From contig JAAZGX010000077.1 in assembly GCA_012511005.1 (NCBI GenBank), positions 1 to 30,227 on the forward strand: 30,227 bases of DNA, in the 5' to 3' direction. The stretch is from Clostridiales bacterium (GTDB taxonomy: Bacteria > Bacillota > Clostridia > Oscillospirales > Acutalibacteraceae). The notes under the pieces are model-generated. The model was not told the origin of the DNA. It did not search any database and saw nothing but the letters and a program-made list of their open reading frames with translations. A program made the translations under genes and the position numbers. This document shows positions 554 to 30,048 of the stretch, piece after piece; positions within the stretch are counted from its first letter, which is position 1, and every line of letters begins with the position of its first letter.

Positions 554-568
554 AGTATCAGCTCCTTT

Positions 569-3300: not shown

Positions 3301-3313
3301 AATATCTCCTCGT

Positions 3314-4621: not shown

Positions 4622-4632
4622 CGTTTTCCCCC

Positions 4633-4660: not shown

Positions 4661-4671
4661 AATTATCATTA

Positions 4672-4700
4672 ATAATAACATGTACATCTGATTTTTGCAA
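4672..4700 (-). promoter_or_regulatory. sigA-type promoter for the sulfatase-asnS run
   Basis: TTGCAA-N17-TATTAT with TG extended -10. Confidence 0.55.
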
Positions 4701-4740
4701 CAATAAAGAACAAATTAGAAGAATTTACGCTGTAATATAC

Positions 4741-4769
4741 TTGAATTTCACACAGTTACATGCTACAAT
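4741..4769 (+). promoter_or_regulatory. sigA-type promoter for the metallophosphoesterase/flavoprotein run
   Basis: TTGAAT-N17-TACAAT with TG extended -10. Confidence 0.6.
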
Positions 4770-4789
4770 TTCCTATAGGGTGGAAGAAG

Positions 4790-5626: not shown

Positions 5627-5636
5627 GGACATTAAA

Positions 5637-7406
5637 ATGAGCGTATTTGAAACGATTGAAAAAAATTGTGATTTTTGCGTAATAGGCGGCGGACTTTCCG
5701 GCGTTGCGGCAGCGGTAGCGGCGGCAAGGCATGGCGCAAAAGTTATTCTTGTTCAGGATAGACCTATGCTCGGAGGTAACGCGTCCTCTGAAATGCGCAT
5801 GTGGGTTTGCGGCGCTTCCGGCGATAATATGCGTGAAACAGGAATAATTGAGGAGATTATGCTTAAAAACCAATACAGAAACCCTTATAAAAACTACTCC
5901 ATATGGGATAGCGTTATTCTTGAAACGGTTATGGATAATGAGAATATAACCTTACTTCTCAACTGCTCTTGTATGGACGGCATGGCAAACGAAAGCTCCA
6001 TAGAATATGTTTTGTGCTGGCAGACTACAACACAAAGGTTTTTTAAGATACATGCCAAAATATTTGCCGACTGCTCCGGAGACAGCGTTTTAGCCCCTAT
6101 AAGTAAAGCTTTTTACAGGGTAGGCAGAGAAAGTAAAAATGAGTTCGGTGAACAATTCGCAGTCGAAACTGCAGATAATAAAACTATGGGTATGAGCTGC
6201 CTTATACAAGCGCGTGAATGTCTTGAAGAGAAAATCTTTATACCGCCCGTATGGGCAAAAAAGCTTACTAAAGACGACCTTTTGCACCGTTTTCCTAACC
6301 TTTATAGCGACAGTGAAAACTTTTGGTATTTAGAGCTTGGCGGCGACAGAAATTCTATAAAAGACACTGAAGATATAAGAGATGAGCTGCTAAAGCTTGC
6401 TTACGGCTTTTGGGATTTCATAAAAAATGATGAAAGCTGCAAAGAAAAGCATAAAAATTTCGACCTTGATTGGATAGGCATTCTGCCCGGCAAAAGAGAG
6501 TCGCGCCGCTATGTAGGCGACTATATTTTAACACAAAACGATGTTTTGACTAAAAGAGATTATCCCGACACCGCAGCATATGGCGGCTGGCCGCTTGACG
6601 ACCACGACCCAAAAGGCTTTAACCGCTCTGACGGTAAACCTAATCGTGCTATGAAAGTAAACTCGCCCTATCCTATCCCCTTCAGATGTATGTATTCAAA
6701 AAACATTTCAAATTTAATGTTCGCAGGCAGGAATATTAGTGCTACTCACACGGCTTTAAGCTCCTCAAGAGTAATGGCTACTTGTGCCGTAATAGGGCAA
6801 GCTGTCGGTACGGCGGCGGCGATTGCTGTAAAGAAAAATATTACACCGCGAAAGATTTATAGTGAGCATATCAAAGAACTCCAAAAACTGTTAATGTATG
6901 GCGACTGCTATATTTTGCACACAATTCGCCCGCTGACAGAGCTTACAAAGTCTGCTGTTATAAAGTCCAATATGAGTAACCCCGAAAACCTGAGAAACGG
7001 GATTGACCGCCCTATTGACGGTGAATATAACGGCAGTGTGGGGAAAAAATCTTGCTTCTTTGAGTATGATTTACAAAAAGCAGAATATGTTGACAAAATA
7101 AGAATTGTGTTTGACAGTGACCTAAACCGAAAAACGCTGCCGGAGCGTGAAAGTAAACTAAACCGCAATATGTTCCATAATATACTCTTAGGCAGAAAGG
7201 CATCATATGTGCCTAAAACCATTGTAAAAGAATTTCGGGTTATACTTACTTTAGAGGACGATAAAGAAAAGATAATAAATATCACGGATAACTACCAAAG
7301 ACTTGTTTATATTTCGTGCGGTGAAGCGGTAAAATCAGTAAAACTGATATTTAACGAAACACACGGAGACGAAAATTGCCGTGTATTTGCTATAGACCTT
7401 GTTTAG
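5637..7406 (+). CDS. FAD-dependent oxidoreductase (FAD_oxidored/PF12831-like) with a C-terminal extra domain
   Basis: VIGGGLSG dinucleotide-binding motif, LGGNASSE, ADCSGD, RESRR, IPFRC and FAGRNISATH...SSRVMATC; about 170 aa of C-terminal extension, possibly discoidin-like. Confidence 0.82.
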   Translation: MSVFETIEKNCDFCVIGGGLSGVAAAVAAARHGAKVILVQDRPMLGGNASSEMRMWVCGASGDNMRETGIIEEIMLKNQYRNPYKNYSIWDSVILETVMDNENITLLLNCSCMDGMANESSIEYVLCWQTTTQRFFKIHAKIFADCSGDSVLAPISKAFYRVGRESKNEFGEQFAVETADNKTMGMSCLIQARECLEEKIFIPPVWAKKLTKDDLLHRFPNLYSDSENFWYLELGGDRNSIKDTEDIRDELLKLAYGFWDFIKNDESCKEKHKNFDLDWIGILPGKRESRRYVGDYILTQNDVLTKRDYPDTAAYGGWPLDDHDPKGFNRSDGKPNRAMKVNSPYPIPFRCMYSKNISNLMFAGRNISATHTALSSSRVMATCAVIGQAVGTAAAIAVKKNITPRKIYSEHIKELQKLLMYGDCYILHTIRPLTELTKSAVIKSNMSNPENLRNGIDRPIDGEYNGSVGKKSCFFEYDLQKAEYVDKIRIVFDSDLNRKTLPERESKLNRNMFHNILLGRKASYVPKTIVKEFRVILTLEDDKEKIINITDNYQRLVYISCGEAVKSVKLIFNETHGDENCRVFAIDLV

Positions 7407-7470
7407 GATTTCAGATTGCAGGAAAACGCAAAGCGTTTATTAAATTGAAAATGGAGAATTGAGAATTGTG
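7407..7470 (+). repeat. Heptamer-repeat element flanking a small hairpin
   Basis: GATTTCA GATTGCA, then AAACGC-aaa-GCGTTT, then AATTGAA AATGGAG AATTGAG AATTGTG. Confidence 0.55.
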
Positions 7471-8691
7471 AAAAAAATAGCTATAATCGGCGGCGGCGCC
7501 TCCGGACTTGCTGCCGCGATTGAAGCGTTAAGGCTTTCAAAAAAGCGAAATATACCCGTTTCTGTTACTATATATGAAAAGCTGCCGCGTATTTGTAAAA
7601 AAATACTCGTAACCGGTAACGGCAGGTGCAACCTTTGTAATGCCGATATTAAAACAGAGCATTACAGAGGCGATAAATCGTTAATTAGCGCCGTTATTGA
7701 CAGCGGCTTTTCAGATACTCTTTCTTTTTTTAATTCATTGGGGCTTTTGTTAAAACAGGAAAGCGGCAGAGTATATCCAAAATCGGGAAATGCTTCGTCA
7801 GCAGCAGACGCTTTAAGGTTTATGGCACTTTCACTTGGCTGTAAAGTTTTTTCAGATACTGAAATCAATAAAATAGAGAAAAGGGAAAATGGTTTTCTTT
7901 TAAATGATAAATATGCGGCAGATGCCGTAATTTTAGCCGGCGGCGGCGCGGCGGCGCCATATTGCGGCACTGACGGGAACGGCTATACACTTTTAAGGTC
8001 ACTTGAGCATAGGGTGACAGAGGTCCGCCCCGCTCTCGTTCCTGTTAAATGTGAGGACTTGTTTTTTAAATCGTTAAAAGGTATAAGGGCAGACGCTATA
8101 GCAACGCTTTTCTGCAATAGCGAAAAACTATACGAGGAAATGGGTGAAGTTCAATTTACTGAATACGGACTTTCGGGAATTCCTATATTAAATATGTCGG
8201 GACTTATAGATATGGATGAAAAATTGAAATATAGAATAACTCTTGATTTGTGCCCCGATATGGATTATAACAGCTTAAAGGAGTTTTTAGAAACAGCCTT
8301 TTCACGGGGCAAGCCTACTGCGGCAGATGTTTTAACGGGGATTATTCCGAAAAGGCTCGGTGAAGTGCTGTTAAAACGAATTGATATTTCACCTTTAGAA
8401 ACTCCAAATAATATAACATCGGATGCCATAGCAAAAATTACAAACATTATAAAATGTTTTGATGCCTCTGTAATAGCCACGACCGGATTTAAGAATGCGC
8501 AAGTAACAGCAGGCGGTTTATCGGCAGAGGAAATAGAGCTTTCCACACTTTGTTCAAAACATATTGACGGGCTTTATATCTGCGGAGAGCTTCTTGACGC
8601 TTATGGCATTTGCGGCGGGTACAACCTGCATTTTGCATGGACTTCGGGAAGAATAGCGGGATATTCCGCCGCTTTGAAGGTAACTGAATGA
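7468..8691 (+). CDS. HI0933/YhiN-family NAD(P)/FAD-dependent oxidoreductase
   Basis: IIGGGASG, KILVTGNGRCN, GRVYP, QVTAGG and GELLD-G-CGGYNL-FAW-SG motifs. GTG at 7468 is preferred because of the GGAG at 7453-7456. Confidence 0.88.
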   Translation: MKKIAIIGGGASGLAAAIEALRLSKKRNIPVSVTIYEKLPRICKKILVTGNGRCNLCNADIKTEHYRGDKSLISAVIDSGFSDTLSFFNSLGLLLKQESGRVYPKSGNASSAADALRFMALSLGCKVFSDTEINKIEKRENGFLLNDKYAADAVILAGGGAAAPYCGTDGNGYTLLRSLEHRVTEVRPALVPVKCEDLFFKSLKGIRADAIATLFCNSEKLYEEMGEVQFTEYGLSGIPILNMSGLIDMDEKLKYRITLDLCPDMDYNSLKEFLETAFSRGKPTAADVLTGIIPKRLGEVLLKRIDISPLETPNNITSDAIAKITNIIKCFDASVIATTGFKNAQVTAGGLSAEEIELSTLCSKHIDGLYICGELLDAYGICGGYNLHFAWTSGRIAGYSAALKVTE

Positions 8692-10292
8692 TTAGATTAA
8701 ATGAAATAAGATTGCCGCTTGAAGCGGCAAAAGAGGATATTCTGAAAGAGGCGGCAAGGCTTCTTAATATAAATAAAAGTGATATATTATCTTTATCCGT
8801 TTATAAAAAGTCTTTGGACTCACGAAAAAAGCATGATATTCATTTCGTTTATTCTGTTGATATTGAAACACAGCTTGACGAAAAATCTGTAATATCTTCA
8901 TTCCCGGAGAATAAAGCCTCTGTTGTTGAAAAGTATAGCTATACTCTGCCCGAGATGCGGCGAAATTCAATTTTCCGCCCTGTTGTAGTAGGCTTTGGTC
9001 CCGCCGGTATGTTTTCTGCTTTGCTGCTTGCCGAGGCAGGGCTTAATCCGCTGATTTTAGAGCGCGGCGACGATGTTGACACACGCATAAAAAAAGTCAG
9101 GAATTTCTGGGAGAATAAAATTCTTGACGAAAATTGCAATGTTCAATTCGGCGAGGGCGGCGCCGGCACTTTTTCTGACGGAAAGCTTACGACAGGCATA
9201 AAAAACCCCTTATGCCGCGAAGTACTTTTACGGCTTTATAAATATGGCGCGCCTGAGGAAATACTATGGAATAAATCGGCGCATATTGGTACGGATGGGC
9301 TAAGGGATGTTGTAAAGGCAATAAGAAATAGAATAATTGAGCAAGGCGGCGAGGTTAAATTCGGGTGCCGAATGACCGATATTATTAAGGCAAACGGGTG
9401 GGTACACGGCGTTTCTTATATTGATAAAAACGGCAGTAAAACAGATTTTGAAACGGATACAATAGTTCTTGCTATCGGTCACTCTGCAAGGGATACTTAT
9501 ATGTATTTGCACTCTGCAAATATAGAGCTTGAAAGAAAGGCTTTTTCCGTAGGGCTTAGGATTGAGCATCCGCAAGAATATATAAATAAATGCCAATACA
9601 GCAAAGAATATAAAAATCCTTTGCTGCCACCCGCTGACTACAAACTTTCAAACCATTCTCTCCACGGCAGAGGCGCTTATACATTTTGTATGTGCCCCGG
9701 CGGCACAGTTGTAAACGCCTCGTCTGAAAAAGAATGCGTAACCGTAAACGGAATGAGCGAATTTGCGCGTAATGCCGAAAACGCAAATTCCGCTATACTC
9801 GTAGGACTTCTGCCGGAGTTTTTCCCAAGTGAACACGCTCTTTCAGGTATGCATTTACAGCGTGAAATTGAAAAAAAGGCTTTTACTGTAAGCGGCGGAT
9901 ATTTACCTGTTTCTCAACTTCTTAAAGATTTTCTAAATGACGCACCGTCAAAAAAAGCGGGCGCCGTTACACCGTCTTGTCCGACGGGTGTTTCGTTCGG
10001 CAACATACGCTCTGTTTTACCGAAATGGGCGTGCGACACTATTTCTGCCGCAATTTATAGCTTTGACAGAAAACTAAATGGCTTTAATTTTTCTGACGCC
10101 GTTCTAACTTCTCCTGAAACGCGAAGCTCCTCTCCCGTCAGAATAAAGCGCGACGAGTTTATGAACTCTGTCCGTCTTTTCGGGCTTTACCCTTGCGGCG
10201 AGGGCGCAGGCTATGCGGGCGGCATTGTATCTGCCGCCGTTGACGGAATGAAAGCGGCAGAGAAAATTATAAGCGGAGAATACCCGTATTAA
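8688..10292 (+). CDS. Uncharacterised FAD-dependent dehydrogenase (COG2509-like)
   Basis: VVGFGPAG, LERG, QFGEGGAGTFSDGKL, HIGTD, FCMCPGG, ETRSSSPVRI and PCGEGAGYAGGIVSAAVDG motifs; ATGA overlap with the upstream gene. Confidence 0.85.
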   Translation: MIRLNEIRLPLEAAKEDILKEAARLLNINKSDILSLSVYKKSLDSRKKHDIHFVYSVDIETQLDEKSVISSFPENKASVVEKYSYTLPEMRRNSIFRPVVVGFGPAGMFSALLLAEAGLNPLILERGDDVDTRIKKVRNFWENKILDENCNVQFGEGGAGTFSDGKLTTGIKNPLCREVLLRLYKYGAPEEILWNKSAHIGTDGLRDVVKAIRNRIIEQGGEVKFGCRMTDIIKANGWVHGVSYIDKNGSKTDFETDTIVLAIGHSARDTYMYLHSANIELERKAFSVGLRIEHPQEYINKCQYSKEYKNPLLPPADYKLSNHSLHGRGAYTFCMCPGGTVVNASSEKECVTVNGMSEFARNAENANSAILVGLLPEFFPSEHALSGMHLQREIEKKAFTVSGGYLPVSQLLKDFLNDAPSKKAGAVTPSCPTGVSFGNIRSVLPKWACDTISAAIYSFDRKLNGFNFSDAVLTSPETRSSSPVRIKRDEFMNSVRLFGLYPCGEGAGYAGGIVSAAVDGMKAAEKIISGEYPY

Positions 10293-10342: not shown

Positions 10343-11620
10343 TTACAGCACTTTAATTACATTGTACATTGAGTTTAAGACAATCCAATTTTGCGGAAAA
10401 TAGCTGTTAAGCGTCCAATAGCTTACACCTGCAAGACCGTATTCATTTACGGTGTAAAGCTTCGCTCTTATACTTCGGGCATCCTCAAACCACACAACAT
10501 GCTCGTTACCGTTATTATCAAAGTAGTTAAAAAACGGTGATTGCGCTTTTAAATCGAACTTAATTTCTGCTCCAACAGAAGAGGCTAAGTTTGCCGCCGC
10601 CGTGTTTGACAGCACTCTTGCAGACGAGCCCTGTACGAAAGGCAGCGTCCAGTCGTAACCGTAGTTCGGTATGCCCATCAGTATTTTTTCGGGCGGTATT
10701 GCCGTTACGGCATAGTCTAATACTCTTCTGACCTCATTAAGCGGCGCTACCGCCTGTGCGGGTCCATATGTATAGCCCCATTCATATGTCATAAGTATTA
10801 CAAAGTCCACCGTTCTGCCGTGAAACGGGTAGTCGTGCGCTTCATAAAGCGTTCCCTGTTGGTCTGCTGATATTTTCGGAGCAAGGGAGGTAGTTACAAT
10901 ATAGCCTTGCGCTTTTAATGTTTCTGTCAAACGCGCTATAAATTGATTATAGCTTTCACGGTCATACGGAAAGATGTATTCAAAGTCCACATTTATTCCG
11001 TAATACCCTTTAGGAAGGGTTTGCAGTATATTGTTTATAAGATTGTTCTGGGCAGCCTCATTTGTGAGTACGGCATGGGCTATGTCGCCGCTAAAGCCGC
11101 CGCCCTCACGGATATTAGTAATAACCATTAACGGCGCAACATTCGCCGCTCTTGCCGCGTCTATTATAGGCCGGTCGTTAAGATTTGAAAGACTGCCGTC
11201 CGCTCTTACTTCATAACTGAATATGCTTATAAAAGTAAGGTTTGGTAAAGTTTTTTGCAAAGTATCGGTGCTAATACCGGGAAAAACATAACCGTTAACA
11301 TAAATAGAGCCTATTTTTTCATCCGATAGCGGTATCGTAATCACTTGACCTGCAAAAATCTGTGCGGGGTTTGTGATTTGCGGATTTGCGGCTGCAATAG
11401 CGTCCACAGTAACAGAATACATTTGTGCTATGCTGTAAAGGCTTTCTCCCGCTAAAACCGTGTGCCGTACACTCGTTACGGGTACAACTATTGCCTGCCC
11501 CACCATAAGCCTTTCTGGGTTTGATATGGCATTGTCCGTAATTAACCGCTCTGCCGAAACGCCGTAACGCTGCCCAATTTTGTATAGTGTGTCCCCCGGT
11601 CTTACAATATGAATTAGCAT
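10343..11620 (-). CDS. Two-LysM + GH18 spore cortex/coat glycoside hydrolase (YaaH/SleL/YdhD-like)
   Basis: Two LysM repeats (HIVRPGDTLYKIGQRYGV; HTVLAGESLYSIAQMYSV); GH18 GINVDFE, LMTYEWG, GIPNYGYDW and VWFEDARS motifs. Confidence 0.92.
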   Translation of the reverse strand: MLIHIVRPGDTLYKIGQRYGVSAERLITDNAISNPERLMVGQAIVVPVTSVRHTVLAGESLYSIAQMYSVTVDAIAAANPQITNPAQIFAGQVITIPLSDEKIGSIYVNGYVFPGISTDTLQKTLPNLTFISIFSYEVRADGSLSNLNDRPIIDAARAANVAPLMVITNIREGGGFSGDIAHAVLTNEAAQNNLINNILQTLPKGYYGINVDFEYIFPYDRESYNQFIARLTETLKAQGYIVTTSLAPKISADQQGTLYEAHDYPFHGRTVDFVILMTYEWGYTYGPAQAVAPLNEVRRVLDYAVTAIPPEKILMGIPNYGYDWTLPFVQGSSARVLSNTAAANLASSVGAEIKFDLKAQSPFFNYFDNNGNEHVVWFEDARSIRAKLYTVNEYGLAGVSYWTLNSYFPQNWIVLNSMYNVIKVL

Positions 11621-11658
11621 GTAATCAATCCTTTATGTATATTTAAATATGCCGCTAT

Positions 11659-11688
11659 TAATATATGAGGATTGATATTTTTTGATAC
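11659..11688 (-). promoter_or_regulatory. sigE/sigK-like mother-cell promoter for the LysM-GH18 gene
   Basis: GTATCAA-N14-CATATATTA; resembles the B. subtilis sigE geometry (ATA...CATACA-T) and the sigK -10 (CATA---TA). Confidence 0.5.
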
Positions 11689-11728
11689 AAAAAGGCTGTG
11701 ACGAAATTTTCATTTTGTCACAGCTTTT
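11689..11728 (-). terminator. Intrinsic terminator of the DUF2804 gene
   Basis: GCTGTGAC...GTCACAGC stem followed by CTTTTT on the minus strand. Confidence 0.75.
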
Positions 11729-11743
11729 ATATTTTTTATTATT

Positions 11744-12898
11744 CTACCACCTGTTATCGGAGTATTCGCAAAACGCAAACATATCTTTAATTTCAAGCCT
11801 GCTGCCGTCATCTAATATAACATATCCATTAAAATGACCGAACACCTGATGGCATATATTGCCGACGAAAAGTACGCGTGTTTTCGTATAATTATCGAAA
11901 TACGGCGTCATAACCATTTCAAATCGTCCGTCTTCTGAGGTGAATATCCAGTCAGACATATAGTCGCCTTCCTTTTCAAGGGATACGCTTATTTCGCCAA
12001 GCTTCTCGGCTTTTCCGTCAATAAACATCATATTCCCCGTCGTTTTTGACGCGTCGCCAAAGCCCCATGTAATCTCAAATCCGAACATCTTCCCGTTTGG
12101 GAGCAGAGTTGTGCCGTTGCCCCAATACCAATCGCCCGCATAGGGCCATACTCCTCTGCCCCAGTCAAGACAGCAGAATGTGTCGGAGGGGTCGAACTCG
12201 ATTACAAGGTCACCTATTGTAATAGTGCCGCTGACAGGCATACTCGTAAATTTATTGTTTAAATAGAAATATTTATCGCTAACGCTTGTAAAAGGCGTTG
12301 CCGTTGTGATAGTTTCAAGTCCGTCCATCATAAAAATATCAAGGTCTGCCTTATATGAAACGCCTTTATGCGTACTGTCTAATGTTATGTGCCTGTGGTT
12401 TTTATCAACATTTACACTTAAATCAAACTTTTTATTTTTATAGCTTAAATTATGAGGCTTTATAGCATTAGTTTCCATACCCATATTGCCGAAAGTGAAC
12501 AGCTTTACAAAAGGCACCTCATACCTGTCGCCCGTTTTCATATCGCAAAGAACTATTGAGGCATAGCCTGCCATTGAAATATCCGCAATAACAACTTGCA
12601 CAAAATAGCGCTCGTTGCAAAACTGATAAAAATCCCACTCCTTTATCCTTAGCGGATTTGTTTTTATATCAGAGCGGGAATATTCATAAAGATTATTTTC
12701 ACAGTAACCGGACTTTGTAAGCGTACCGTCCTTTTGCAAAAGAGGAGTAACCTCGGTTATCCTTACCTGTTCATCTGTTTTGCCGCTGTAACCTATGTAT
12801 TTGTCACGCTGAAAACCCGAAAACGCAATAGTTACTACTGCCGCAAGTAAAACGAATACGAGTGAGACAATGAAAAGAGTAATGTATAGATTTTTCAT
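11744..12898 (-). CDS. DUF2804-family protein with an N-terminal transmembrane segment
   Basis: PLLQKDG-L...RIKEWDFY, LDWGRGVW and YWGNG motifs. Start moved to ATG 12898 (GGAGGA SD). Hydrophobic stretch LYITLFIVSLVFVLLAAVVTIAF. Confidence 0.75.
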   Translation of the reverse strand: MKNLYITLFIVSLVFVLLAAVVTIAFSGFQRDKYIGYSGKTDEQVRITEVTPLLQKDGTLTKSGYCENNLYEYSRSDIKTNPLRIKEWDFYQFCNERYFVQVVIADISMAGYASIVLCDMKTGDRYEVPFVKLFTFGNMGMETNAIKPHNLSYKNKKFDLSVNVDKNHRHITLDSTHKGVSYKADLDIFMMDGLETITTATPFTSVSDKYFYLNNKFTSMPVSGTITIGDLVIEFDPSDTFCCLDWGRGVWPYAGDWYWGNGTTLLPNGKMFGFEITWGFGDASKTTGNMMFIDGKAEKLGEISVSLEKEGDYMSDWIFTSEDGRFEMVMTPYFDNYTKTRVLFVGNICHQVFGHFNGYVILDDGSRLEIKDMFAFCEYSDNRW

Positions 12899-12953
12899 AT
12901 TTATTCCTCCAAAACCGTTTTTATAATAATATCTTTTATTTTTCTGCAGCTTG

Positions 12954-12982
12954 ATTATAAATAAAAAATCGGTCTTAGTCAA
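12954..12982 (-). promoter_or_regulatory. sigA-type promoter for the DUF2804 gene
   Basis: TTGACT-N17-TATAAT. Confidence 0.75.
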
Positions 12983-13003
12983 ATGATTTTAGTCGATAAA
13001 CAA

Positions 13004-14056
13004 TTAATCCTCTAAAATCTCGCGAAATCCGTAAACCCTGCTGTACTCTTTCGTTTCTGTATTTTTAATTACAGCACTTCTGTTTTTCGCAAGTAATTTT
13101 GTTATAGGGAATACATCAATCCAAATTTCGCTTTTGCAATTCTTTTGCGACTCGTCAAAAATTAGCTGAAGCCCTATGTGTAAATGTGCCACATCAATGT
13201 TGTTTACATTTTCTTTTATACTGTAACCCGTTCTTCCAAGGTATCCTATAACATCTCCCGCCTGCACCTCGTCTCCAATTTTTAAGTCCTTATTATACGG
13301 GAAATCCTTACGGAAGTGCGCATAGTAATAATACCTTTTTTTATCATGAGTTCTTATCCCCACTCGCCAGCCGCCGTATTGATTCCACCCCAATTCTTCT
13401 ATTGTTCCGCTCTCAACAGCCACGATTGGAGTTCCGACAGAGCCTATCATATCATGACCTAAATGCACTCTATTAAAGCCGTATGAGCGGCCTGCCCCAA
13501 AGTCGTCATACTCTCTGTAATAAAAGCCTTTGGCAAACGGTGAAAATGCTTTTATTCCGTATTTCCTTTCCCACCTTTTGCCCGTTTCAGATAACTCATC
13601 CTCAACCTCTATTTCATACTCGCCTACAAGCCCTGAGAGAATAGCGGTGTATGCCTCATAATAAAAATCATAATACTTTAGCCCTGTAGAAAGGCATTCC
13701 ATAGTTTCTCCCGATTTTATTTTATCAACGAGCGCGTCAAGCTGCGCAGTCTTAAACCCTTTGAAGTTGTTGCCGTTTTTAGCGGCTGTGTAAGCTAAAA
13801 TCTCTATATAGCTTATAGGAGTATCCGTTGTGCGGTACTTTATATCAAGCTTTACCGCATATTCGAGAGCCTCGTAAGGCACATTAAAATCAACCCATTT
13901 TATAAAGTCTTTCTTTTCGTTATTTTCTCCAACACTTTTTATCGCTTCAGCTTTTTTCGGTACACCGGAAATCAGAGCTATTATGATAAAAAGCATAACA
14001 AACATAACGGCGCCGACGGCAATATAGGATTGCTTGCGCCCTAAAAGAACGAACAT
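13004..14056 (-). CDS. Membrane-anchored M23 (LytM) family metallopeptidase
   Basis: HLGHD (HxxxD), YYYYAH and HLH Zn-ligand motifs intact; N-terminal TM IAVGAVMFVMLFIIIALISG. Start moved to ATG 14056 (GAGGGGG SD). Confidence 0.85.
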   Translation of the reverse strand: MFVLLGRKQSYIAVGAVMFVMLFIIIALISGVPKKAEAIKSVGENNEKKDFIKWVDFNVPYEALEYAVKLDIKYRTTDTPISYIEILAYTAAKNGNNFKGFKTAQLDALVDKIKSGETMECLSTGLKYYDFYYEAYTAILSGLVGEYEIEVEDELSETGKRWERKYGIKAFSPFAKGFYYREYDDFGAGRSYGFNRVHLGHDMIGSVGTPIVAVESGTIEELGWNQYGGWRVGIRTHDKKRYYYYAHFRKDFPYNKDLKIGDEVQAGDVIGYLGRTGYSIKENVNNIDVAHLHIGLQLIFDESQKNCKSEIWIDVFPITKLLAKNRSAVIKNTETKEYSRVYGFREILED

Positions 14057-14086
14057 CGTCTTTCCCCCTCGGTATACGGTTATTAA

Positions 14087-14112
14087 GCGCAAGACAAAAA
14101 TTCATCCTGCGC
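14087..14112 (-). other. Hairpin between spoIIIAH and the M23 gene (weak terminator or processing stem)
   Basis: GCGCAGGAT-gaattttt-GTCTTGCGC, a 9-bp stem with two GU pairs and only a short U tail. Confidence 0.35.
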
Positions 14113-23584: not shown

Positions 23585-23587
23585 AAC

Positions 23588-23606
23588 GCGCCGCAAAAAG
23601 CGGCGC
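23588..23606. terminator. GC-rich hairpin between convergent comM and nagB
   Basis: GCGCCGC-aaaaa-GCGGCGC, followed by GTTTT on the minus strand. Confidence 0.65.
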
Positions 23607-23629
23607 ATAATTATTTAACACAATATATT

Positions 23630-24361
23630 TTATAAAAGTGAAGCGGCTTCTTTATCAAGTAAAACAGTCACATCACTATGGCTTTGGAGTATTGACGCGG
23701 GAACTGACGGAGTAATCTCACCTTTTATCATATTCTTTATTGCCTTTGCTTTTTTCTCTCCCATTGCAAGCAGTATAATGGATTTTGCTTTGCAAATGTT
23801 TTCTACGCCCATTGTCAGCGCATATTGAGGCATTTCCGACTCTGTAAAATAAATCTTATTTGCTTCAATCGTGCTGTCAGTAAGCTTAGTTTTATAAGAG
23901 CCTTTTGAAAACTCGTCTGACGGCTCGTTAAAAGCGATATGAGCATTGTTGCCTATGCCGAGAATTTGTAAATCTACTCCGCCTTTTTCCTCCACAAGTG
24001 CGTCATACCGCGCACACTCAGCTTCCGTATCGGCGGCGTTACCATCATGAAAATTAACATTTTCTTCTTTTATATCAATGTGATTGAAAAGTGTTTCATG
24101 CATAAATGTGTAATAGCTGTTTTTATCATTTTTAGGAATATTGCAATATTCGTCAAGATTAAATGTTGTAACATCCTTAAAAGACAGTTCATTTTGTTTA
24201 TACATCTCAATAAGTGCCTCATATGTCAAAATAGGCGACGCACCCGTCGCAAGCCCTAAAACACTGTCTGGCTTGCTTTTTATTTGAGTGGCAATCATTT
24301 GTGCCGCCTCTTTTGCTATTTGCTCCTTCGTATCAAAAACCTTTATATTAATCGTAATCAC
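23630..24361 (-). CDS. nagB: Glucosamine-6-phosphate deaminase
   Basis: LGLATGASP, TFNLDEY, DLQILGIGNNAHIAFNEP, ALTMGV and PASILQ-H motifs. The start is ambiguous (GTG 24361 or ATT 24352). Confidence 0.95.
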   Translation of the reverse strand: MITINIKVFDTKEQIAKEAAQMIATQIKSKPDSVLGLATGASPILTYEALIEMYKQNELSFKDVTTFNLDEYCNIPKNDKNSYYTFMHETLFNHIDIKEENVNFHDGNAADTEAECARYDALVEEKGGVDLQILGIGNNAHIAFNEPSDEFSKGSYKTKLTDSTIEANKIYFTESEMPQYALTMGVENICKAKSIILLAMGEKKAKAIKNMIKGEITPSVPASILQSHSDVTVLLDKEAASLL

Positions 24362-25059
24362 TCCTTGATTATTTTTCTTGCTATTGCTATCGGTGTTTGC
24401 TCCCTGCCCTGCCCTAATGGGTTGTCCTCAAATATGGCTTTGCACATTTCAACGGATAAAAATTCATCAGAAACGCCAAGTACATCTCTGCCTAAATCGT
24501 TAGCATCCATTATAGCGACCATACATCCCGTATACTCCATTAACTCCTTTGCAACCTTTTCTGGATTTAACGGCGCAAGCTTTGCTGCGTGGTTATAAGG
24601 CGGAATAGTATAGTCACACGGTCCGTCAATAGCCCTTGCTCTCGTTCCCGCAATCTTATAAAACACTCCTCTTACTCCAAACGGTTTAGTAACAGCAGAG
24701 CAAAAGGCGGCAAAAAGTATTCTTGGTATACCTACATCCTTTAGCGCCAACTCCATAGTCCATGGACTTCCAAGTCCGATACCATAGGGTGTTTTCACAA
24801 CGAACTTGCAAAGCAGTTTAGCAAGCCGCGACGGCTTAATATCATCAATATCAAACGACCTGCCTTGGCTAATAGCAACAATTTTTTCGCTTATAAATAT
24901 CATATCCCCGTCTTTTATATGCGGCTTTACATACTTGTCCATCATATCTTTAAGACTATCCCCTTTTACGACTACATGCGTTTTAACGGGGAACCTTAAA
25001 AAGTCACCATACGGTGTGGATATTTTTAATTCTTTATTCTCATTAGGAACAAACTCCAT
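24358..25059 (-). CDS. CofE-like (F420-0:gamma-glutamyl ligase family) amide ligase, substrate unknown
   Basis: TH-V--GD, ISEKIVAISQGR, AIDG, DAND-G and DNPLGQG-EQTPI motifs; 233 aa single domain. Confidence 0.78.
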   Translation of the reverse strand: MEFVPNENKELKISTPYGDFLRFPVKTHVVVKGDSLKDMMDKYVKPHIKDGDMIFISEKIVAISQGRSFDIDDIKPSRLAKLLCKFVVKTPYGIGLGSPWTMELALKDVGIPRILFAAFCSAVTKPFGVRGVFYKIAGTRARAIDGPCDYTIPPYNHAAKLAPLNPEKVAKELMEYTGCMVAIMDANDLGRDVLGVSDEFLSVEMCKAIFEDNPLGQGREQTPIAIARKIIKE

Positions 25060-25080
25060 ATTAAATCCTTATCTTTCGTA

Positions 25081-26532
25081 TTATTGTTTGTTTTTAGTAT
25101 TTTGCGTTTTTTTATACATATTTTCAAAAACCTCTGCGATTTTTCCTGCCGTTTTTACACCGAGTGAGTTAGTTTCCTCATAATGATTGCGCCCGTGAAT
25201 ATCCTTAGCGCGGTTAAGGTACGGCATATCAGTATCAAGCAGAAAGTCATTTGGCGGGATTATATAACCTACCTCGTCATTAGCAAGCCCAAATACTAAC
25301 AGCTCTTTATCATCGCATATTTCGACTAACGGCTTTGGATTAACTTCCGCTCCTTGACCCGTTGCGCTTTCTTCACTGCTTAAATACCCTCCGTATAAAA
25401 GCTCCGGAAAAAGTTCTCCAGGGATAAAAAGCATTTTTAGGCCGTCAAGCTCGAAATAAGTCATCTCCGACTTTAATGCAATCTTTAGCGGTGCATTATG
25501 AGAAATATATTTATCTACTTTAAGTATTCCTGCCATACCTGCTAAAATAAGCACAGTATTGTCCGCCTCAAAGTAAAAGCGTTGTTTCATCATACTCAAA
25601 TTTGGCTTTAGCTTTTTCTCATTTTTAATGGAAAGGGCATATTCGGCTAAATTTTCGCCAATCATTTTAGTCGATTTCGGTCTATCGTCATCAAGCAGAT
25701 GCATCGTTATCATTCCGCCTATTGCGCCTACAAAATATATAGTTTCCGCTCCCGTTTCTTCAAAAACCTTTCTTCTTAAATAGCACGGAAAATCAGCGCT
25801 TACGAGTGAGTTTTTACTTGAAAGTGATTCTGAATGGGCGGCAAAGTTTATAAAATACACCTGTCTGCCGCCGTCTTTGGGAACAAATCGAAGCCTCGTC
25901 AGCGTTTTCGAGAAAACTTCCGGTGTTCTAATATCCTTTTGCATATCAGGCACTTCAACTCGCCCCAAGAATATATCTCCGTCTTTTCTGTCCATATATG
26001 CCTTTTTAACAGCAGAGCGTACACCTGCTCTTAAGACTTCCATATAGTGCTTATCCCTACCCGTAAAAGGCAGCGGACCCCATATACCCATCGTATCTAT
26101 TCCTGCATGGCTGTGAGTGCTTAGTATTTCAACAGAGCGGCAGCCTGTTTCACTTATAAACTCTGAAAGAGAGGATTTTATAGCCTCTACATCTTTATTT
26201 AGCATACCTACATTATCAATAGAAACGAACACGACGGCGCCCCTGCCGCTATTGTCATCTATCCACACGGCATGTGCAAACGGGGTGTCCAAAACACCCG
26301 TTGCGGGGTTGTTTATATTGTATCCCGCAACATAATATTTTTTCTTGTCTAAGTCGCCGGGAAGGATTTCAGTTTTGCCAAATCCCACTGTAAACTTTTT
26401 GCCTTTTACATCCTTTATATAATCGAATTCGCTTTCCAGAATAGGTTGTATTTCTTTCGATTTAGATACTGCTTTTGCTCTTAACTTAACGCCCGCTCTT
26501 ATTAAATCAGATGCTTTCTTCCCTTTGCTCAT
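25081..26532 (-). CDS. Neutral/alkaline ceramidase-like metallo-amidohydrolase, paralog A (no signal or TM segment)
   Basis: AGY, SID-VG, STHSHAG, FAAH, SADFP, PGE, GLAND--GY and HYEE motifs in the order seen in the neutral ceramidase fold. Start moved to ATG 26532 (GGTGGTGAG SD). Confidence 0.65.
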   Translation of the reverse strand: MSKGKKASDLIRAGVKLRAKAVSKSKEIQPILESEFDYIKDVKGKKFTVGFGKTEILPGDLDKKKYYVAGYNINNPATGVLDTPFAHAVWIDDNSGRGAVVFVSIDNVGMLNKDVEAIKSSLSEFISETGCRSVEILSTHSHAGIDTMGIWGPLPFTGRDKHYMEVLRAGVRSAVKKAYMDRKDGDIFLGRVEVPDMQKDIRTPEVFSKTLTRLRFVPKDGGRQVYFINFAAHSESLSSKNSLVSADFPCYLRRKVFEETGAETIYFVGAIGGMITMHLLDDDRPKSTKMIGENLAEYALSIKNEKKLKPNLSMMKQRFYFEADNTVLILAGMAGILKVDKYISHNAPLKIALKSEMTYFELDGLKMLFIPGELFPELLYGGYLSSEESATGQGAEVNPKPLVEICDDKELLVFGLANDEVGYIIPPNDFLLDTDMPYLNRAKDIHGRNHYEETNSLGVKTAGKIAEVFENMYKKTQNTKNKQ

Positions 26533-26561
26533 ACACTCACCACCAATCATTTATATTCATA

Positions 26562-26590
26562 ATATTAGCACCGCAGAAAAAAAATGTCAA
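26562..26590 (-). promoter_or_regulatory. sigA-type promoter for paralog A-cofE-like-nagB
   Basis: TTGACA-N17-TAATAT with TG extended -10. Confidence 0.7.
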
Positions 26591-26615
26591 CTTGATATAC
26601 ACAAATCTTAGAATA

Positions 26616-26626
26616 TGTGGTAATAT
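26616..26626 (+). promoter_or_regulatory. Extended -10 promoter for paralog B-metallophosphoesterase
   Basis: TGTG-g-TAATAT (TRTG motif); the -35 position reads TACACA, a weak match. Confidence 0.45.
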
Positions 26627-26658
26627 TATTATATTAAGTAGTAAAGGTTGTGTTTATT

Positions 26659-28272
26659 ATGAAAAAACTTTCAATTCTTGCCGCTTCTGCCGCCGTTATC
26701 GGCGCTGGTGCAGGGTATATTGCTTATAAAAATATAGATGATGGAAAAAAGAAAAAAGTTAAGTATGACCTTGGCGATAAAGCTATAAGAAGTGCTGTTC
26801 GCGCCCTTTTTCACGCTTATCCCGGGGGGAGTTGGCAGCTAAAGCAAGAATATATTCCGCGAAACTTTTTTGAGGGAACAGAAACCTTTATTGACAAACC
26901 GAAACCTAACGCGAAGTGGTCTTTAGGCTACGCCTCCGACTCTCTTTTATCTTCAATAGACTTAATGGCAAGCAAGCATTTTATGGGTGGATATTTAGCT
27001 TTCCCGCCTAATGTTGTTGATGGTGTTATAGATGACCAATGTGTGCGTGTTATTGCACTTGATGACGGCTCTGGGCGCGGTATAAGCGTTTTTGCCGTAA
27101 TTGACTGCATAGGGCTTGCAAGTACCGATGTCCGCAGGATTCGTGAAAGGCTTTCTGATTTTACCAAGCTCCACAACATAAACTGCATAAACATCTCCGC
27201 TACACACTGCCACAGTGCCGTTGATACACAAGGGCTTTGGGGCGACCTTATCCCCGGTGCTATTATAGAGAATTTTAAGAAGCTCAGAAAAGGTGATACA
27301 GATACATTACAGTCCGGCAGAAATCCTGAATTTATGGAAAACCTTTATGCAGTAACGGTAGATACAATTAAAAAAGCCGTGGAAGATATGAAAAAGGGCG
27401 TATTATACTGTAGTGTCAGCGATGAAAAGAAGTATTCTCGCGATAAGCGCAAGCCCGATGTTACGGAAGATGACCTTACGATGTTGCGATTTGCGCCAAG
27501 TGACAAAAGCCGTGAGACTATTGCCGTATTCGCCGCTGTTCATCCGATTGCTTTAGGCTATAGAAATACTAAGGTTAGTGCCGACTTTCCCTATTATATG
27601 GTAGATGAGCTTGATAAAAACAACTATAACGGCATATTCTTTCAAGGTCCTCAGCTTGCCGTTACTACATCTGACGAGGTCGTTGGTGAGGAGCTTAAAA
27701 ACTCTGAACAGGAAAGATATGCGAAGTTTGGCAGGGGTCTTGCCCGTTATGCTATGTCACTTGTGAAAAGTGATAAGGAAAAGAAAGTAAAACCCATACT
27801 CAATGTTAAGATAACAGAGGTTTTCGTACCTTGTGAAAATGAGATTTTAATGCTCGTCGGAAAAGCCGGTCTTGTTACTAACAATATTTTAAGAAACGGC
27901 AGCTCATCGTCTGATATTGTTTTCGTTACAGAGGTAGGCTATGTAGAGCTTGGCGAAAATCAGTGCTTTGCTTTAATCCCGGGTGAATTTGCGCCGGAGC
28001 TGCTTCTTGGCGGTGCTTATGATGCCGACAATGCGTATAACAAGCAAGATTGGCACCTGCCTGCTATGACATCTATGGTAAAACCCGACTGTAAATTAAC
28101 CGTAATAGGATTATGTAATGACTCAATAGGATATATTTTGCCCTCAAATGATTACGGCAGCATAATAGCGCCGGAACATTATGAAGAAGCCGTTTCAGCG
28201 GGTGCTAAAGCCGGTGAGGTTATTGTTAATGCTTTCAATTTTTTAACAGAAAGGTCTAAAAATGAGCGGTAA
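26659..28272 (+). CDS. Neutral/alkaline ceramidase-like metallo-amidohydrolase, paralog B with an N-terminal hydrophobic anchor
   Basis: GGY, IDCIG, ATHCHS, AVHP, SADFP, PGE, GLCND--GY and HYEE motifs; N-terminus MKKLSILAASAAVIGAGAGYIAY. Start moved to ATG 26659 (AAAGGT SD). Confidence 0.65.
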   Translation: MKKLSILAASAAVIGAGAGYIAYKNIDDGKKKKVKYDLGDKAIRSAVRALFHAYPGGSWQLKQEYIPRNFFEGTETFIDKPKPNAKWSLGYASDSLLSSIDLMASKHFMGGYLAFPPNVVDGVIDDQCVRVIALDDGSGRGISVFAVIDCIGLASTDVRRIRERLSDFTKLHNINCINISATHCHSAVDTQGLWGDLIPGAIIENFKKLRKGDTDTLQSGRNPEFMENLYAVTVDTIKKAVEDMKKGVLYCSVSDEKKYSRDKRKPDVTEDDLTMLRFAPSDKSRETIAVFAAVHPIALGYRNTKVSADFPYYMVDELDKNNYNGIFFQGPQLAVTTSDEVVGEELKNSEQERYAKFGRGLARYAMSLVKSDKEKKVKPILNVKITEVFVPCENEILMLVGKAGLVTNNILRNGSSSSDIVFVTEVGYVELGENQCFALIPGEFAPELLLGGAYDADNAYNKQDWHLPAMTSMVKPDCKLTVIGLCNDSIGYILPSNDYGSIIAPEHYEEAVSAGAKAGEVIVNAFNFLTERSKNER

Positions 28273-29689
28273 TAATCAAATAAAATTTATCGTAGTCGCT
28301 GATTTACACCACTACTCTCCCACTCTTGGAATAACGGGAAATGCGTATAAAATGAGAAGTGAATCAGACCAAAAAATGCTTGCAAAGACGGGCGCGCTCA
28401 TTCGTGCGGCGTTTGATGAAATGACTGCTGCTGACATTGACTTTATCCTCATAGTCGGTGATGTTACTAATAACGGCGAAAGGGCGTCTCACGAAGAATT
28501 TCGTGAAATGATGTATGAGTATCAACAAAAAAAGCCGATTTACATAATAACCTCTACTCATGATTGGTGCAGTGACAATAATCCAAGGCGGTATGACGGC
28601 GACAATGTGTACGACGATGTACCAAACCTTAAAATTGATGAGCTTACAAAGTTTTATAAAGATTTCGGGCTAACTGATGCCCTTTCCGTTTATAAAACAT
28701 CTGCGGGAAATGCCTCTTACTCCGTAAGACCTTGTGAGGGGCTTACTGTACTTTGTCTTAATGATGATTTTAATGAAGAGGGCGGCTCCGGATTTTCAGA
28801 CGAACATATTGAATGGATAAAAACACAGTGTGACGAGGCGAAAAAACGAAATGATAATATAATAGGCGCTAATCATCATCCATACCTTTTAACAGAATTT
28901 GATAAGCTTATTAATAACAGCAAAACAGTCAAATACAAGAATGAGCTTGCCCTTAAAGTCGCAAAAGCGGGAATGCCAATAGCCTTTGTGGGGCATACAC
29001 ATATGCAGCACATAACAAAGCTTGAAACTGACGGCAACGAATTTTATGAAATTAATGTCGCTGCTCTTTCAGGCTACCCTGCCGCTATGGCTTACTGCAC
29101 AGTAACGGACAATGAGCTGAAAATTAATGTTAAGCACCTTCAAAGGTTTACATATGACGGAAAAGAATATACGAATGAATACCTGAGAAACCACGCAACA
29201 AACTTATTTACAAAGGTGGTAAAAGCTGCCGCAAATAACAATTTAGATGAATTTATAGCTCTTGTAGCATCTATTGGAATGGGCAAAAAAAAGGCGTCAA
29301 AACTTTGGAAATATTTGCGGCTTCCAATCAAAAAGCTTGATACGGCAACAGTCAAAGGAACGGCAAAGCTTATAAACGCACTTACATTTGGAAAGGCTAT
29401 TGATAAAAAAGCGGCTAAAGAAGTTGGCAGCGAGCGCGTCCTTGATGTTGCGCTTCAGGTATTTTTGAATATTCTTGACGGCGGAATAGAAACGGTAAAC
29501 GAAGATGACGCAAAATTCAAGATAGTACGAGACGCCGTATCTCTGCCTTATAGGATTGTAACGGCTTTCAGAATAAAAAACAGCTCTCTCATAAATACGC
29601 TTAATAAAATACAAAATGTAGTAGGACCCATTATGACGGGCGGCGAAATCAACTCTAATAATGCTGTTATTAAATTCCCTAACCAATAA
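28262..29689 (+). CDS. Calcineurin-like metallophosphoesterase with a helical C-terminal extension
   Basis: ADLH, VGDVT, STHD (GNHD variant), NHHP and GHTH motifs; overlaps paralog B by 11 nt. Confidence 0.85.
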   Translation: MSGNNQIKFIVVADLHHYSPTLGITGNAYKMRSESDQKMLAKTGALIRAAFDEMTAADIDFILIVGDVTNNGERASHEEFREMMYEYQQKKPIYIITSTHDWCSDNNPRRYDGDNVYDDVPNLKIDELTKFYKDFGLTDALSVYKTSAGNASYSVRPCEGLTVLCLNDDFNEEGGSGFSDEHIEWIKTQCDEAKKRNDNIIGANHHPYLLTEFDKLINNSKTVKYKNELALKVAKAGMPIAFVGHTHMQHITKLETDGNEFYEINVAALSGYPAAMAYCTVTDNELKINVKHLQRFTYDGKEYTNEYLRNHATNLFTKVVKAAANNNLDEFIALVASIGMGKKKASKLWKYLRLPIKKLDTATVKGTAKLINALTFGKAIDKKAAKEVGSERVLDVALQVFLNILDGGIETVNEDDAKFKIVRDAVSLPYRIVTAFRIKNSSLINTLNKIQNVVGPIMTGGEINSNNAVIKFPNQ

Positions 29690-29710: not shown

Positions 29711-29739
29711 TTGACAATAAAGAGCCGTTGTGCTAACAT
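29711..29739 (+). promoter_or_regulatory. sigA promoter of the tRNA-Ser pair
   Basis: TTGACA-N17-TAACAT with TG extended -10; ends 12 nt before the first tRNA. Confidence 0.8.
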
Positions 29740-29751
29740 ATCTAAGGTAAT

Positions 29752-29840
29752 GGAGAGATACCGAAGTGGTCATAACGGAACGGTCTTGAAAACCGTCGTG
29801 CGGCAACGCACCGTGGGTTCGAATCCCACTCTCTCCGCCA
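29752..29840 (+). tRNA. tRNA-Ser (anticodon TGA)
   Basis: Acceptor GGAGAGA/TCTCTCC, anticodon arm ACGGT-CTTGAAA-ACCGT, long variable arm GTGCG-GCAA-CGCAC, T arm GTGGG-TTCGAAT-CCCAC, discriminator G and encoded CCA. Confidence 0.98.
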
Positions 29841-29841
29841 A

Positions 29842-29946
29842 TTCAGATTTCAGACGGCAGATTTCAGATATCAGATTTATAATAAAACATCCGCGCCGCA
29901 AACCATTAATTTGCAGTTTGCAATTTGCCATCTACAATTTCAAATC
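29842..29946. repeat. Two oppositely oriented heptamer arrays in the tRNA spacer
   Basis: TTCAGAT TTCAGAC GGCAGAT TTCAGAT ATCAGAT (29842-29876) and TTTGCAG TTTGCAA TTTGCCA TCTACAA TTTCAAA (29910-29944). Confidence 0.75.
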
Positions 29947-29957
29947 CTGTTACCTAT

Positions 29958-30048
29958 GGAGAAGTACTCAAGTTGGTGACGAGGCGCCCCTGCTAAGGGC
30001 GTAGGTCGGGTAACCGGCGCGAGGGTTCGAGTCCCTCCTTCTCCGCCA
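29958..30048 (+). tRNA. tRNA-Ser (anticodon GCT)
   Basis: Acceptor GGAGAAG/CTTCTCC, anticodon arm CGCCC-CTGCTAA-GGGCG, long variable arm, T arm GAGGG-TTCGAGT-CCCTC, discriminator G and encoded CCA. Confidence 0.98.

Follow-up and report, generated by a model that had tools for sequence, protein, structure and literature searches.

Near one end of a 30,227-nt stretch of DNA from a Clostridiales bacterium of the Acutalibacteraceae (contig JAAZGX010000077.1 of assembly GCA_012511005.1; here called the window), five genes lie in two divergent, tightly packed units. The leftward unit consists of cerA, which encodes a protein with the fold of the neutral ceramidases, a gene for a protein resembling the ligase CofE (CofE-like), and nagB. 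The rightward unit consists of cerB, which encodes a second protein of the same ceramidase-like (cer-like) family, and a gene for a calcineurin-like metallophosphoesterase (MPE). We class the locus as a putative amino-sugar catabolic cluster that contains an uncharacterised class of predicted amidase. We found no paper on this combination of genes, in keeping with an earlier note, made from the sequence alone, that knew of no characterised locus of this composition.

Two divergent units at 23630-29689

The genes of each unit are closely spaced. There is a gap of 21 nt between cerA and the CofE-like gene, an overlap of 4 nt between the CofE-like gene and nagB, and an overlap of 11 nt between cerB and the MPE gene. 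The five open reading frames (ORFs), their spacings and their tight coupling are as the earlier note had described them. That note also gave the two units a shared control region of 126 bp. This length stands if internal starts are preferred (ATG 26659 for cerB and Met7, at 26532, for cerA, the latter giving the 483-amino-acid (aa) form found in databases), and falls to 99 nt if the longest ORFs are taken (cerA start 26550, cerB start 26650). A promoter-like site, TTGACA-17-TAATAT, lies upstream of cerA on the minus strand (26590-26562), and a weaker promoter-like site lies within the 3' end of cerA (25286-25259); both are matches to the consensus only. Judged by its sequence, the second site could drive the CofE-like gene and nagB separately. 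As the earlier note had stated, there is no gene for NagA, a transporter or a regulator inside 23630-29689. Signal peptides are absent from four of the five products, and cerB has an N-terminal hydrophobic anchor only. A single sequencing run labelled as RNA contains the locus; it is probably DNA, and contig depths are uninformative about co-transcription.

The genome that carries the block is fragmented (1.65 Mb in 305 contigs, about 90% complete, with the window as contig C140). The block is not an assembly chimera, because it is spanned without a break in two metagenome studies unrelated to each other (digester 2016, bioreactor 2019), in each of which one contig reaches from 22000 to about 29790 and differs at no more than 11 positions. 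Near-identical DNA occurs in metagenomes from poultry litter, digesters, compost, bioreactors, manure and wastewater, and the nearest public records are metagenome-assembled genomes (MAGs) of uncultured Oscillospiraceae, Acutalibacteraceae and "Eubacteriales". The host is a sporulating Clostridium, with the spoIIIA operon, YfhO and ComM just left of the five genes. On the right, a 97-aa ORF at 29711-30004 was rejected as a gene, since it overlaps the two tRNA-Ser genes that follow the MPE gene. These tRNA genes (29752-30048) have the anticodons TGA and GCT and a 117-nt spacer. Metagenome contigs carry alternative spacers or joints there, with skips of 106-116 nt, so the spacer differs among strains or has been collapsed by assemblers.

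Table 1. Coordinates of the five genes and of the features between and around them, in window positions.
Feature	Position	Strand	Basis or remark
Terminator-like hairpin, intrinsic, two-way	23586..23608		Between the ends of ComM (23584) and nagB (23630); closes the leftward unit
nagB, 243 aa	23630..24361	-	TIGR00502
CofE-like gene, 233 aa	24358..25059	-	PF01996
cerA, short-subfamily ceramidase-fold amidase (predicted), 483 aa from Met7	25081..26532	-	Longest ORF starts at 26550
Divergent intergenic region, 126 nt between preferred starts	26533..26658		Promoter-like site within
cerB, long subfamily, 537 aa from ATG 26659 or 540 aa from GTG 26650	26659..28272	+	PF04734, tree
MPE, calcineurin-like metallophosphoesterase, 475 aa	28262..29689	+	PF00149, match to 2xmo
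Two tRNA-Ser genes	29752-29840, 29958-30048	+	Bound the rightward unit

Folds and predicted activities of the five products

cerA and cerB are predicted zinc amidases with the catalytic fold of the neutral ceramidases. cerA scores 45.6 bits against PF04734 (cut-off 32.1), and cerB, which is 30% identical to cerA, scores 25.4 bits; the PF04734 match spans only profile positions 3-218 of 509. Of the family assignments made in the earlier note, those of nagB, the CofE-like protein, cerA and the MPE hold by profile, all above their cut-offs, and that of cerB falls below its cut-off. An AlphaFold2 (AF2) model of cerA, built on a 34-sequence alignment (pLDDT 90.6), matched only neutral ceramidases when the PDB and Swiss-Prot were searched with Foldseek (E 8.8e-26 for 2zws and 1.5e-24 for 4wgk; TM score by query 0.65). 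Similarly, the family profile aligns its tHnHag with THTHSG of human neutral ceramidase and its faSHseS with FAIHPVS. Five residues (His140, His142, His233, Glu373 and Tyr423) are invariant in 34 of 34 aligned family members, cerB included. The H-x-H motif and the second His align with those of human neutral ceramidase and would be part of a zinc site, and Glu373 and Tyr423 are candidate equivalents of the Glu and Tyr ligands there. Neither cerA nor cerB matches the C-terminal ceramidase domain, and the structural matches cover the catalytic domain only; indeed, the two proteins have 483-540 aa, as against 630-780 aa for neutral ceramidases. cerA has no signal peptide and is presumably soluble. 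The N-terminal hydrophobic anchor of cerB is conserved among its orthologues. A search by language-model features (Atlas) with cerA returned its own family only.

The nagB product is a true NagB (281 bits against TIGR00502, cut-off 236.9). There are orthologues in 38 of 40 other genomes of the genus, 59%-75% identical, usually encoded alone on their strand among housekeeping neighbors (HAD, GGDEF, Nnr, Obg). By orthology, the nagB of the block is the main nagB of this organism and the single core orthologue of the genus.

The MPE is likewise a core protein, present as a single-copy orthologue in 41 of 41 genomes of the genus. It scores 39.6 bits against PF00149 (cut-off 21.5), and the motifs D-x-H, GD, H-D, HH and GH-x-H can be read in its sequence. 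Its only significant solved relative is Lmo2642 (PDB 2xmo; E 4e-26, residues 6-280), and its NCBIfam matches, all weak, are to nucleotide phosphodiesterases and anti-phage phosphoesterases. Sphingomyelin phosphodiesterases are not among its significant PDB or NCBIfam matches. It has neither a signal peptide nor an N-terminal anchor. Two side observations concern this gene. First, in one NCBI MAG with the block (L015, 3378-4794), the phosphoesterase gene is split in two frames and called as a 208-aa product. A Logan contig (L016), whose CofE-like protein is identical to that of L015, has an intact gene (473 aa), and the split probably stems from an error of assembly or from a frameshift in that strain. 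Second, contig C72 of our genome (817-3890) encodes a 437-aa MPE paralogue, 27% identical, that overlaps the following GH3 glycosidase gene by 4 nt.

The CofE-like protein belongs to a divergent, highly conserved clostridial subfamily with the CofE fold. It scores 45.8 bits against PF01996 (cut-off 25), in its N-terminal part only, and falls far below the cut-offs of the equivalogs TIGR01916 (28 bits against 181) and NF009809 (25 bits against 274). Profile searches and sequence searches of the PDB matched only the N-terminal ~60 residues (23-87). The AF2 model (pLDDT 83) has a single Foldseek match, to CofE of Archaeoglobus fulgidus, over the full length (E 3e-9, TM 0.55, 17% identity). There are more than 4000 homologues; the best 120, at 64%-88% identity, come from Oscillospiraceae, Acutalibacteraceae and Faecalibacterium records. 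Neither CofD nor CofG (TIGR01819, TIGR03550) has a match in the ~90%-complete genome. F420 is therefore not the substrate, and the protein was rejected as the maker of the F420 tail. Contig C263 of the same genome holds a second PF01996 fragment that looks more canonical.

Conservation of the block and setting of the amidase family

The complete order, with MPE following cerB on one side and the CofE-like gene and nagB following cerA on the other, is confined to some seven closely related genomes or contigs. The block is found in four species representatives (L027-L030; L028 is also G001 and L029 also G010), with cerA at 75%-84% identity. Two of these are cut at a contig end; L030 shows cerA, the CofE-like gene and nagB only, up to the contig end. 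It is also found in G030 (cerA 68% identical), in contigs of the ADurb.Bin300 type (L015-L017) and in a distant metagenome pair (L117 and L118). In this last pair the proteins are 54% (MPE), 55% (cerB), 63% (nagB), 66% (cerA) and 76% (CofE-like) identical to those of the window, and both units are extended: the MPE gene is followed by Fer4, a ROK sugar kinase and SIS, and nagB by a cupin. The flanks vary. ComM, YfhO and spoIIIA flank the block in the window, L027 and L029, inositol-type genes in L015, and other genes in G030. In L117 the block lies between a rhamnosidase and tmk. One further locus (L021; cerA 65% identical) has the head-to-head cerB/cerA pair without the other three genes. The block joins two resident core genes, nagB and the MPE gene, with three accessory ones.

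Beyond these relatives the association dissolves. At 34 loci with cerA homologues of 61% identity or less, the other four genes are all missing out to 9 kb or to the end of the contig, and among 17 cerB-like loci in other species none has a partner gene. Homologues of cerA at 53%-55% identity in Acutalibacteraceae have housekeeping neighbors that give no functional clue. We also considered cerB and the MPE as a general pair and rejected the idea: the 17 cerB-like loci lack an MPE gene, and MPE genes elsewhere have no cer-like neighbor.

The amidase family itself is common in the genus. Our genome has at least six cer-like genes, and the family occurs in 36 of 36 other genomes of the genus, with up to 10 matches each. 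Among 24 other families of the order, it was found in only one. In a maximum-likelihood tree of 62 members there are two deep subfamilies, each with 100% SH-aLRT support: a short one with the cerA, C40 and C262 types, and a long one with the cerB, C32 and C179 types. The family is large, clostridial and uncharacterised, and each of its two deep branches has one member in the block. Short and long genes are paired in two unrelated combinations of clades, head to head in the block and in tandem elsewhere. The N-termini of the long subfamily differ: there is a Sec signal peptide in the C179 type, an anchor in the cerB type, and neither in the type described next, from operons with GH84.

Three kinds of neighborhood connect the family to amino-sugar genes. 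First, when the coordinates of cer-like and GH84 matches on the same contig were compared with a limit of 6 kb, a cer-like gene was found near GH84 in 26 of 31 GH84-bearing genomes of the genus; the other five have fragmentary contigs or are unresolved. In six loci (L105-L110) a short cer gene, a long cer gene, a BadF-type kinase, SIS and GH84 follow one another on one strand. In others (C262 of our genome, where the GH84 locus lies at 397-5256, and L091, L092 and L096) the cer-like gene is divergent from kinase, SIS and GH84, and L104, with a short cer gene, the kinase and GH84, lacks both SIS and a long cer gene. Among solved structures, the kinase is closest to the N-acetylmuramic acid (MurNAc)/N-acetylglucosamine (GlcNAc) kinase 8zo3 (E 1e-33). 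The SIS protein belongs to UPF0309 and matches the NagS structure 9eol (E 2.5e-43); with 18.9 bits as MurQ, it is no MurQ. No signal peptide is found at the start of the GH84 protein of our genome or of the amidases of the L104-L110 operons, and no transporter gene was seen adjoining the operon in the loci examined. In L104-L110 the operon is followed by genes for a 186-aa protein, a HAD-like phosphatase and a flavodoxin-like protein. Second, three species without GH84 (L099, L102, L103) have a tandem cer pair 4-7 kb from nagA. Third, a C40-type cer gene followed by a PlsC gene is divergent from a gene for a 746-aa protein followed by a NagB-like gene. This arrangement occurs in L056, L062 and L095, in L097 up to the 746-aa gene, inside which the contig ends before any NagB-like gene, and in our genome on C232 (373-3339) and C40 (1-2135), two contigs that are adjacent, judged from relatives. 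The NagB-like protein of our genome is 34% identical to the nagB product of the block and is the only other nagB match there. The 746-aa protein has no Pfam match and no signal peptide. By language-model features (Atlas) it is nearest to GH20b, GH67N, DUF4838 and NAGLU, a lead that it may be hexosaminidase-like.

Two further gene sets in the window lie apart from the block. At 3314-10292, a sulfatase gene (N-sulphoglucosamine sulphohydrolase C-terminal domain) is divergent from a gene for a 288-aa metallophosphoesterase, which is followed by three genes of the FAD-dependent oxidoreductase type (FAD_oxidored, HI0933-like and FAD-dependent C-terminal domain); these genes, too, may have to do with glycans. 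At 10343-14092, directly 3' of the spoIIIA operon, there are genes for a LysM-GH18 protein, DUF2804 and an M23 peptidase, which are probably related to sporulation or the cortex.

Possible functions and comparison with known systems

What might the locus do? We lean towards a reading that has close to an even chance of being right, namely that the substrate of cerA and cerB is an amino sugar with an amide on it or attached to it, that they hydrolyse this amide within the cell or at its membrane, and that in this lineage the two have become connected to a phosphoesterase and NagB. The locus would be a lineage-specific assembly of two units, each presumably co-transcribed, for the intracellular processing of a conjugate of the N-acetylhexosamine type. 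The amide hydrolysed by cerA and cerB could involve an N-acyl group unlike that removed by NagA, or it could join the sugar to a peptide or an aglycone. The Lmo2642-like MPE may take a phosphate or a phosphodiester off the same class of substrate. The freed amino sugar would then pass through the normal NagK/NagA route to NagB, yielding fructose-6-phosphate and ammonia. The CofE-like protein is most likely a widely conserved, independently acting, amide-forming enzyme whose gene was captured into the operon along with the resident nagB. We infer the class of substrate, the order of the steps and co-transcription; what we observe is how the genes are ordered, which folds they encode, that the metal-site motifs are conserved, that the block is kept in a narrow lineage only and that across the genus the amidase family is linked to GlcNAc genes.

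There are several points in support of this reading. First, nagB is a plausible functional partner of the amidases, because their family is independently and repeatedly linked to GlcNAc genes. Second, the distant pair L117 and L118 fits a sugar pathway, because a sugar kinase and a SIS enzyme have been added to the block there. Third, a link to amino sugars, which was the core of the first of three models in the earlier note, gains support because the family sits with GH84, a kinase of the NagK/MurK type, SIS, nagA and NagB-like genes. Across the genus this gene context favours a role as amino-sugar-conjugate amidases that would feed NagA and NagB. Also in favour are the close packing of the five genes and their recurrence in one order, as well as the lack of signal peptides in cerA, the MPE, the GH84 and 746-aa proteins of our genome and the amidases of the GH84 operons. 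The other half of that model, in which the amidase replaces NagA, does not survive: nagA is retained, above the cut-off, in 37 of 41 genomes of the genus, our own included. The amidases are thus not stand-ins for NagA and must act otherwise.

There are also observations that weigh against the favoured reading. The block is seen only where cerA is at least 66% identical, that is, in a narrow lineage. Homologues of cerA at 61% identity or less have no amino-sugar genes nearby, and in about 20 of the 34 cerA-homologue loci the neighbors are one and the same group of housekeeping genes (AlaX-like, MBL-fold, YgjP, RNase H, RNase J). The CofE-like gene stands alone in the Faecalibacterium and Acutalibacteraceae loci that were looked up, and in 79 of 80 metagenome loci (L121-L200, 56%-91% identity, many of them short contigs) the other four genes are absent from the flanks that the contigs cover. 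In the sole exception (91% identity) nagB adjoins it, and cerA or the MPE gene is found in the covered flanks of none of the 80. As to the co-occurrence asked about in the earlier note, the same order does recur in the related genomes, and the association fails in the wider samples: none of 34 cerA loci, nagB alone in one of 80 CofE-like loci, and none of 17 cerB-like loci. In species without the block that have both genes on one contig (12 checked: G002, G014, G020, G021, G022, G024, G027, G028, G032, G035, G062 and G064), the MPE gene and nagB share a strand but are separated by 9-17 kb of housekeeping genes, and the MPE gene has no cer-like neighbor. The species with the block therefore rearranged a region that already held both genes, and part of the proximity of MPE and nagB may be inherited synteny. 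The C40-type paralogue, with its PlsC-type acyltransferase, is a hint at lipids. Finally, we found nothing in the literature, biochemical work included, on the short bacterial ceramidase-fold family, whether in connection with ceramidase-like proteins in Clostridia and PF04734 or with UPF0309 and the combination of GH84, BadF and SIS.

The main rival, which we consider possible, if on the unlikely side, is that the block is a mosaic. Two accessory amidase genes, arranged head to head, and a CofE-like gene that otherwise stands alone would have been inserted between a resident MPE gene and a resident nagB, and the overlaps would reflect compaction and promoter sharing rather than a substrate in common. 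Much of the genomic evidence is consistent with this. nagB and the MPE gene are core, single-copy genes; in every other species examined they are separate from cer-like genes and already stand 9-17 kb from each other on one strand. The amidase pair of L021 exists without the other three genes. Of 36 other genomes of the genus sampled, only 3 have a close orthologue of the CofE-like gene, and the gene is independent elsewhere. In L117, moreover, the rightward string continues into tmk, DJ-1, MltG and ApbE, a housekeeping series. However, the order and tight spacing are kept at 54%-76% protein identity and in at least three flanking contexts, which argues against pure accident. The sugar kinase and SIS enzyme of L117 and L118 and the repeated, independent linkage of the amidase family to GlcNAc genes also speak against a mosaic without a shared pathway.

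A wider proposal, which we regard as doubtful, is that the short and long ceramidase-fold proteins, mostly without signal peptides, form a new class of amino-sugar-conjugate amidases. Together with a GH84 enzyme that has no signal peptide, a MurK/NagK-type kinase and a SIS protein of the NagS family, they would make up an undescribed intracellular route for the catabolism of GlcNAc conjugates or cell-wall fragments. In this lineage the route would be wired directly to NagB, and the CofE-fold ligase would share its carboxylate/amide chemistry. The amidases might remove the acyl group from unusual N-acyl hexosamines, or they might cleave the amide in GlcNAc- or MurNAc-peptides or in GlcNAc-asparagine.

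It is improbable that the locus serves the breakdown of N-acyl lipids, in which the amidases would act at the membrane and de-N-acylate amino-lipids, ceramide or a glycolipid with an N-acyl group, while a head group would be removed by the phosphoesterase. The only characterised proteins with this fold are ceramidases, the membrane anchor of cerB is conserved, and a PlsC or lyso-lipid acyltransferase gene follows the C40-type paralogue in several species. Nevertheless, the C-terminal domain and some of the length of neutral ceramidases are missing, cerA has no signal peptide, and the dominant neighbors across the genus are amino-sugar enzymes; apart from PlsC, no lipid genes were seen. The nearest solved relative of the MPE is Lmo2642, a nucleotide phosphodiesterase and not a sphingomyelinase. 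The sphingolipid model of the earlier note finds no support, on the same points, including the lack of secretion signals in four of five products, and its suggestion of a sphingomyelinase-type phosphoesterase fails because Lmo2642 is the only significant match in the PDB. The third model of the earlier note was a make-and-break cycle. By analogy with CofE, the CofE-like protein might add an amino acid to a carboxylate (for example, a lactyl group of the muramic-acid type) that the amidases then remove in the recycling of peptidoglycan fragments, an idea in line with the modelled CofE fold, the action of CofE on a lactyl-linked carboxylate, the MurNAc/GlcNAc kinase closest to that of the sister operon and the cortex and engulfment genes of this sporulating host. 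We consider it very improbable. The two kinds of gene are distributed independently of each other: no fewer than six genomes at the order level have a CofE-like match (40%-52% identity) and no cer-like gene, and most genomes of the genus have cer-like genes without this CofE-like orthologue. In addition, 79 of 80 CofE-like loci lack the other four genes in the flanks covered, and the SIS protein is no MurQ.

What are the implications of these findings? First, the neutral-ceramidase fold has so far been tied only to the hydrolysis of ceramide, and here there is a large bacterial offshoot in an amino-sugar context. Most of the examined forms lack a signal peptide, some are secreted, and the two deep subfamilies are repeatedly paired. 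Second, if the amidases do act on conjugates of GlcNAc or MurNAc, they would be a new class of enzyme for amino-sugar or cell-wall recycling. This would give a function to thousands of proteins annotated as "ceramidase N-terminal domain-containing" or "hypothetical". Third, the five-gene arrangement is one lineage-specific wiring of the amidase family to NagB, and hence a pointer rather than a widespread pathway. The part worth following is the association of the family with amino-sugar genes, in a genus of digester and gut Clostridia. The CofE-like subfamily is a separate unexplained item.

How does the locus compare with known systems? The cer-like proteins share the catalytic fold of the neutral ceramidases (EC 3.5.1.23, PF04734), such as PaCD of Pseudomonas aeruginosa (2zws/2zxc) and human ASAH2 (4wgk), at E values of 1e-24 to 1e-26, and the H-x-H motif and the second His align, with an invariant Glu and Tyr further on in the cer-like family. 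They are only 12%-16% identical to these enzymes and have no C-terminal immunoglobulin-like domain. Characterised neutral ceramidases act outside the cytoplasm, as secreted or ecto-enzymes, whereas cerA has no signal peptide and cerB is membrane-tethered. The neighborhood of the cer-like genes, too, is one of amino-sugar catabolism rather than lipid metabolism. For the CofE-like protein, the relevant comparison is the F420-0:gamma-glutamyl ligase of A. fulgidus (2phn/2g9i/7uld), which ligates glutamate to the lactyl-linked carboxylate of F420-0. The fold is shared over the full length, whereas the CofE-like protein falls in a separate conserved subfamily, is usually encoded alone and occurs here in a genome without CofD or CofG. 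Lmo2642 of Listeria monocytogenes, a metallophosphoesterase and cyclic-nucleotide phosphodiesterase (2xmo), is the best solved relative of the MPE, which has all the calcineurin-type metal motifs and a C-terminal stretch of about 190 residues that is unmatched.

Among pathways for amino sugars, the ong pathway for oxidised chitin uses a deacetylase of the D-aminoacylase type (PMC9537276), which, unlike cerA and cerB, does not have the ceramidase fold. NagS (SCO4393) of Streptomyces is a UPF0309 SIS-fold GlcNAc-6-phosphate dehydratase (9eol) and the one characterised member of its family; distant UPF0309 homologues outside the Streptomycetaceae are reported to lack NagS activity (PMC12680351). 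The SIS protein of the cer-like/GH84 operons belongs to the same family, but is absent from the window, and NagS is relevant here through the context of the amidase family alone. The described Nag pathways do not include ceramidase-fold amidases, and the block differs from them further in having no transporter or regulator and in leaving NagA to another place in the genome. In Shewanella, GlcNAc catabolism proceeds with non-orthologous enzymes, a BadF-type NagK and the SIS-fold NagB-II (PMC2996990, PMC10201695). Like the canonical NagK-NagA-NagB pathway, the block ends in a bona fide NagB, and the sister operons of the genus pair a BadF-type kinase and a SIS protein with a beta-N-acetylglucosaminidase.

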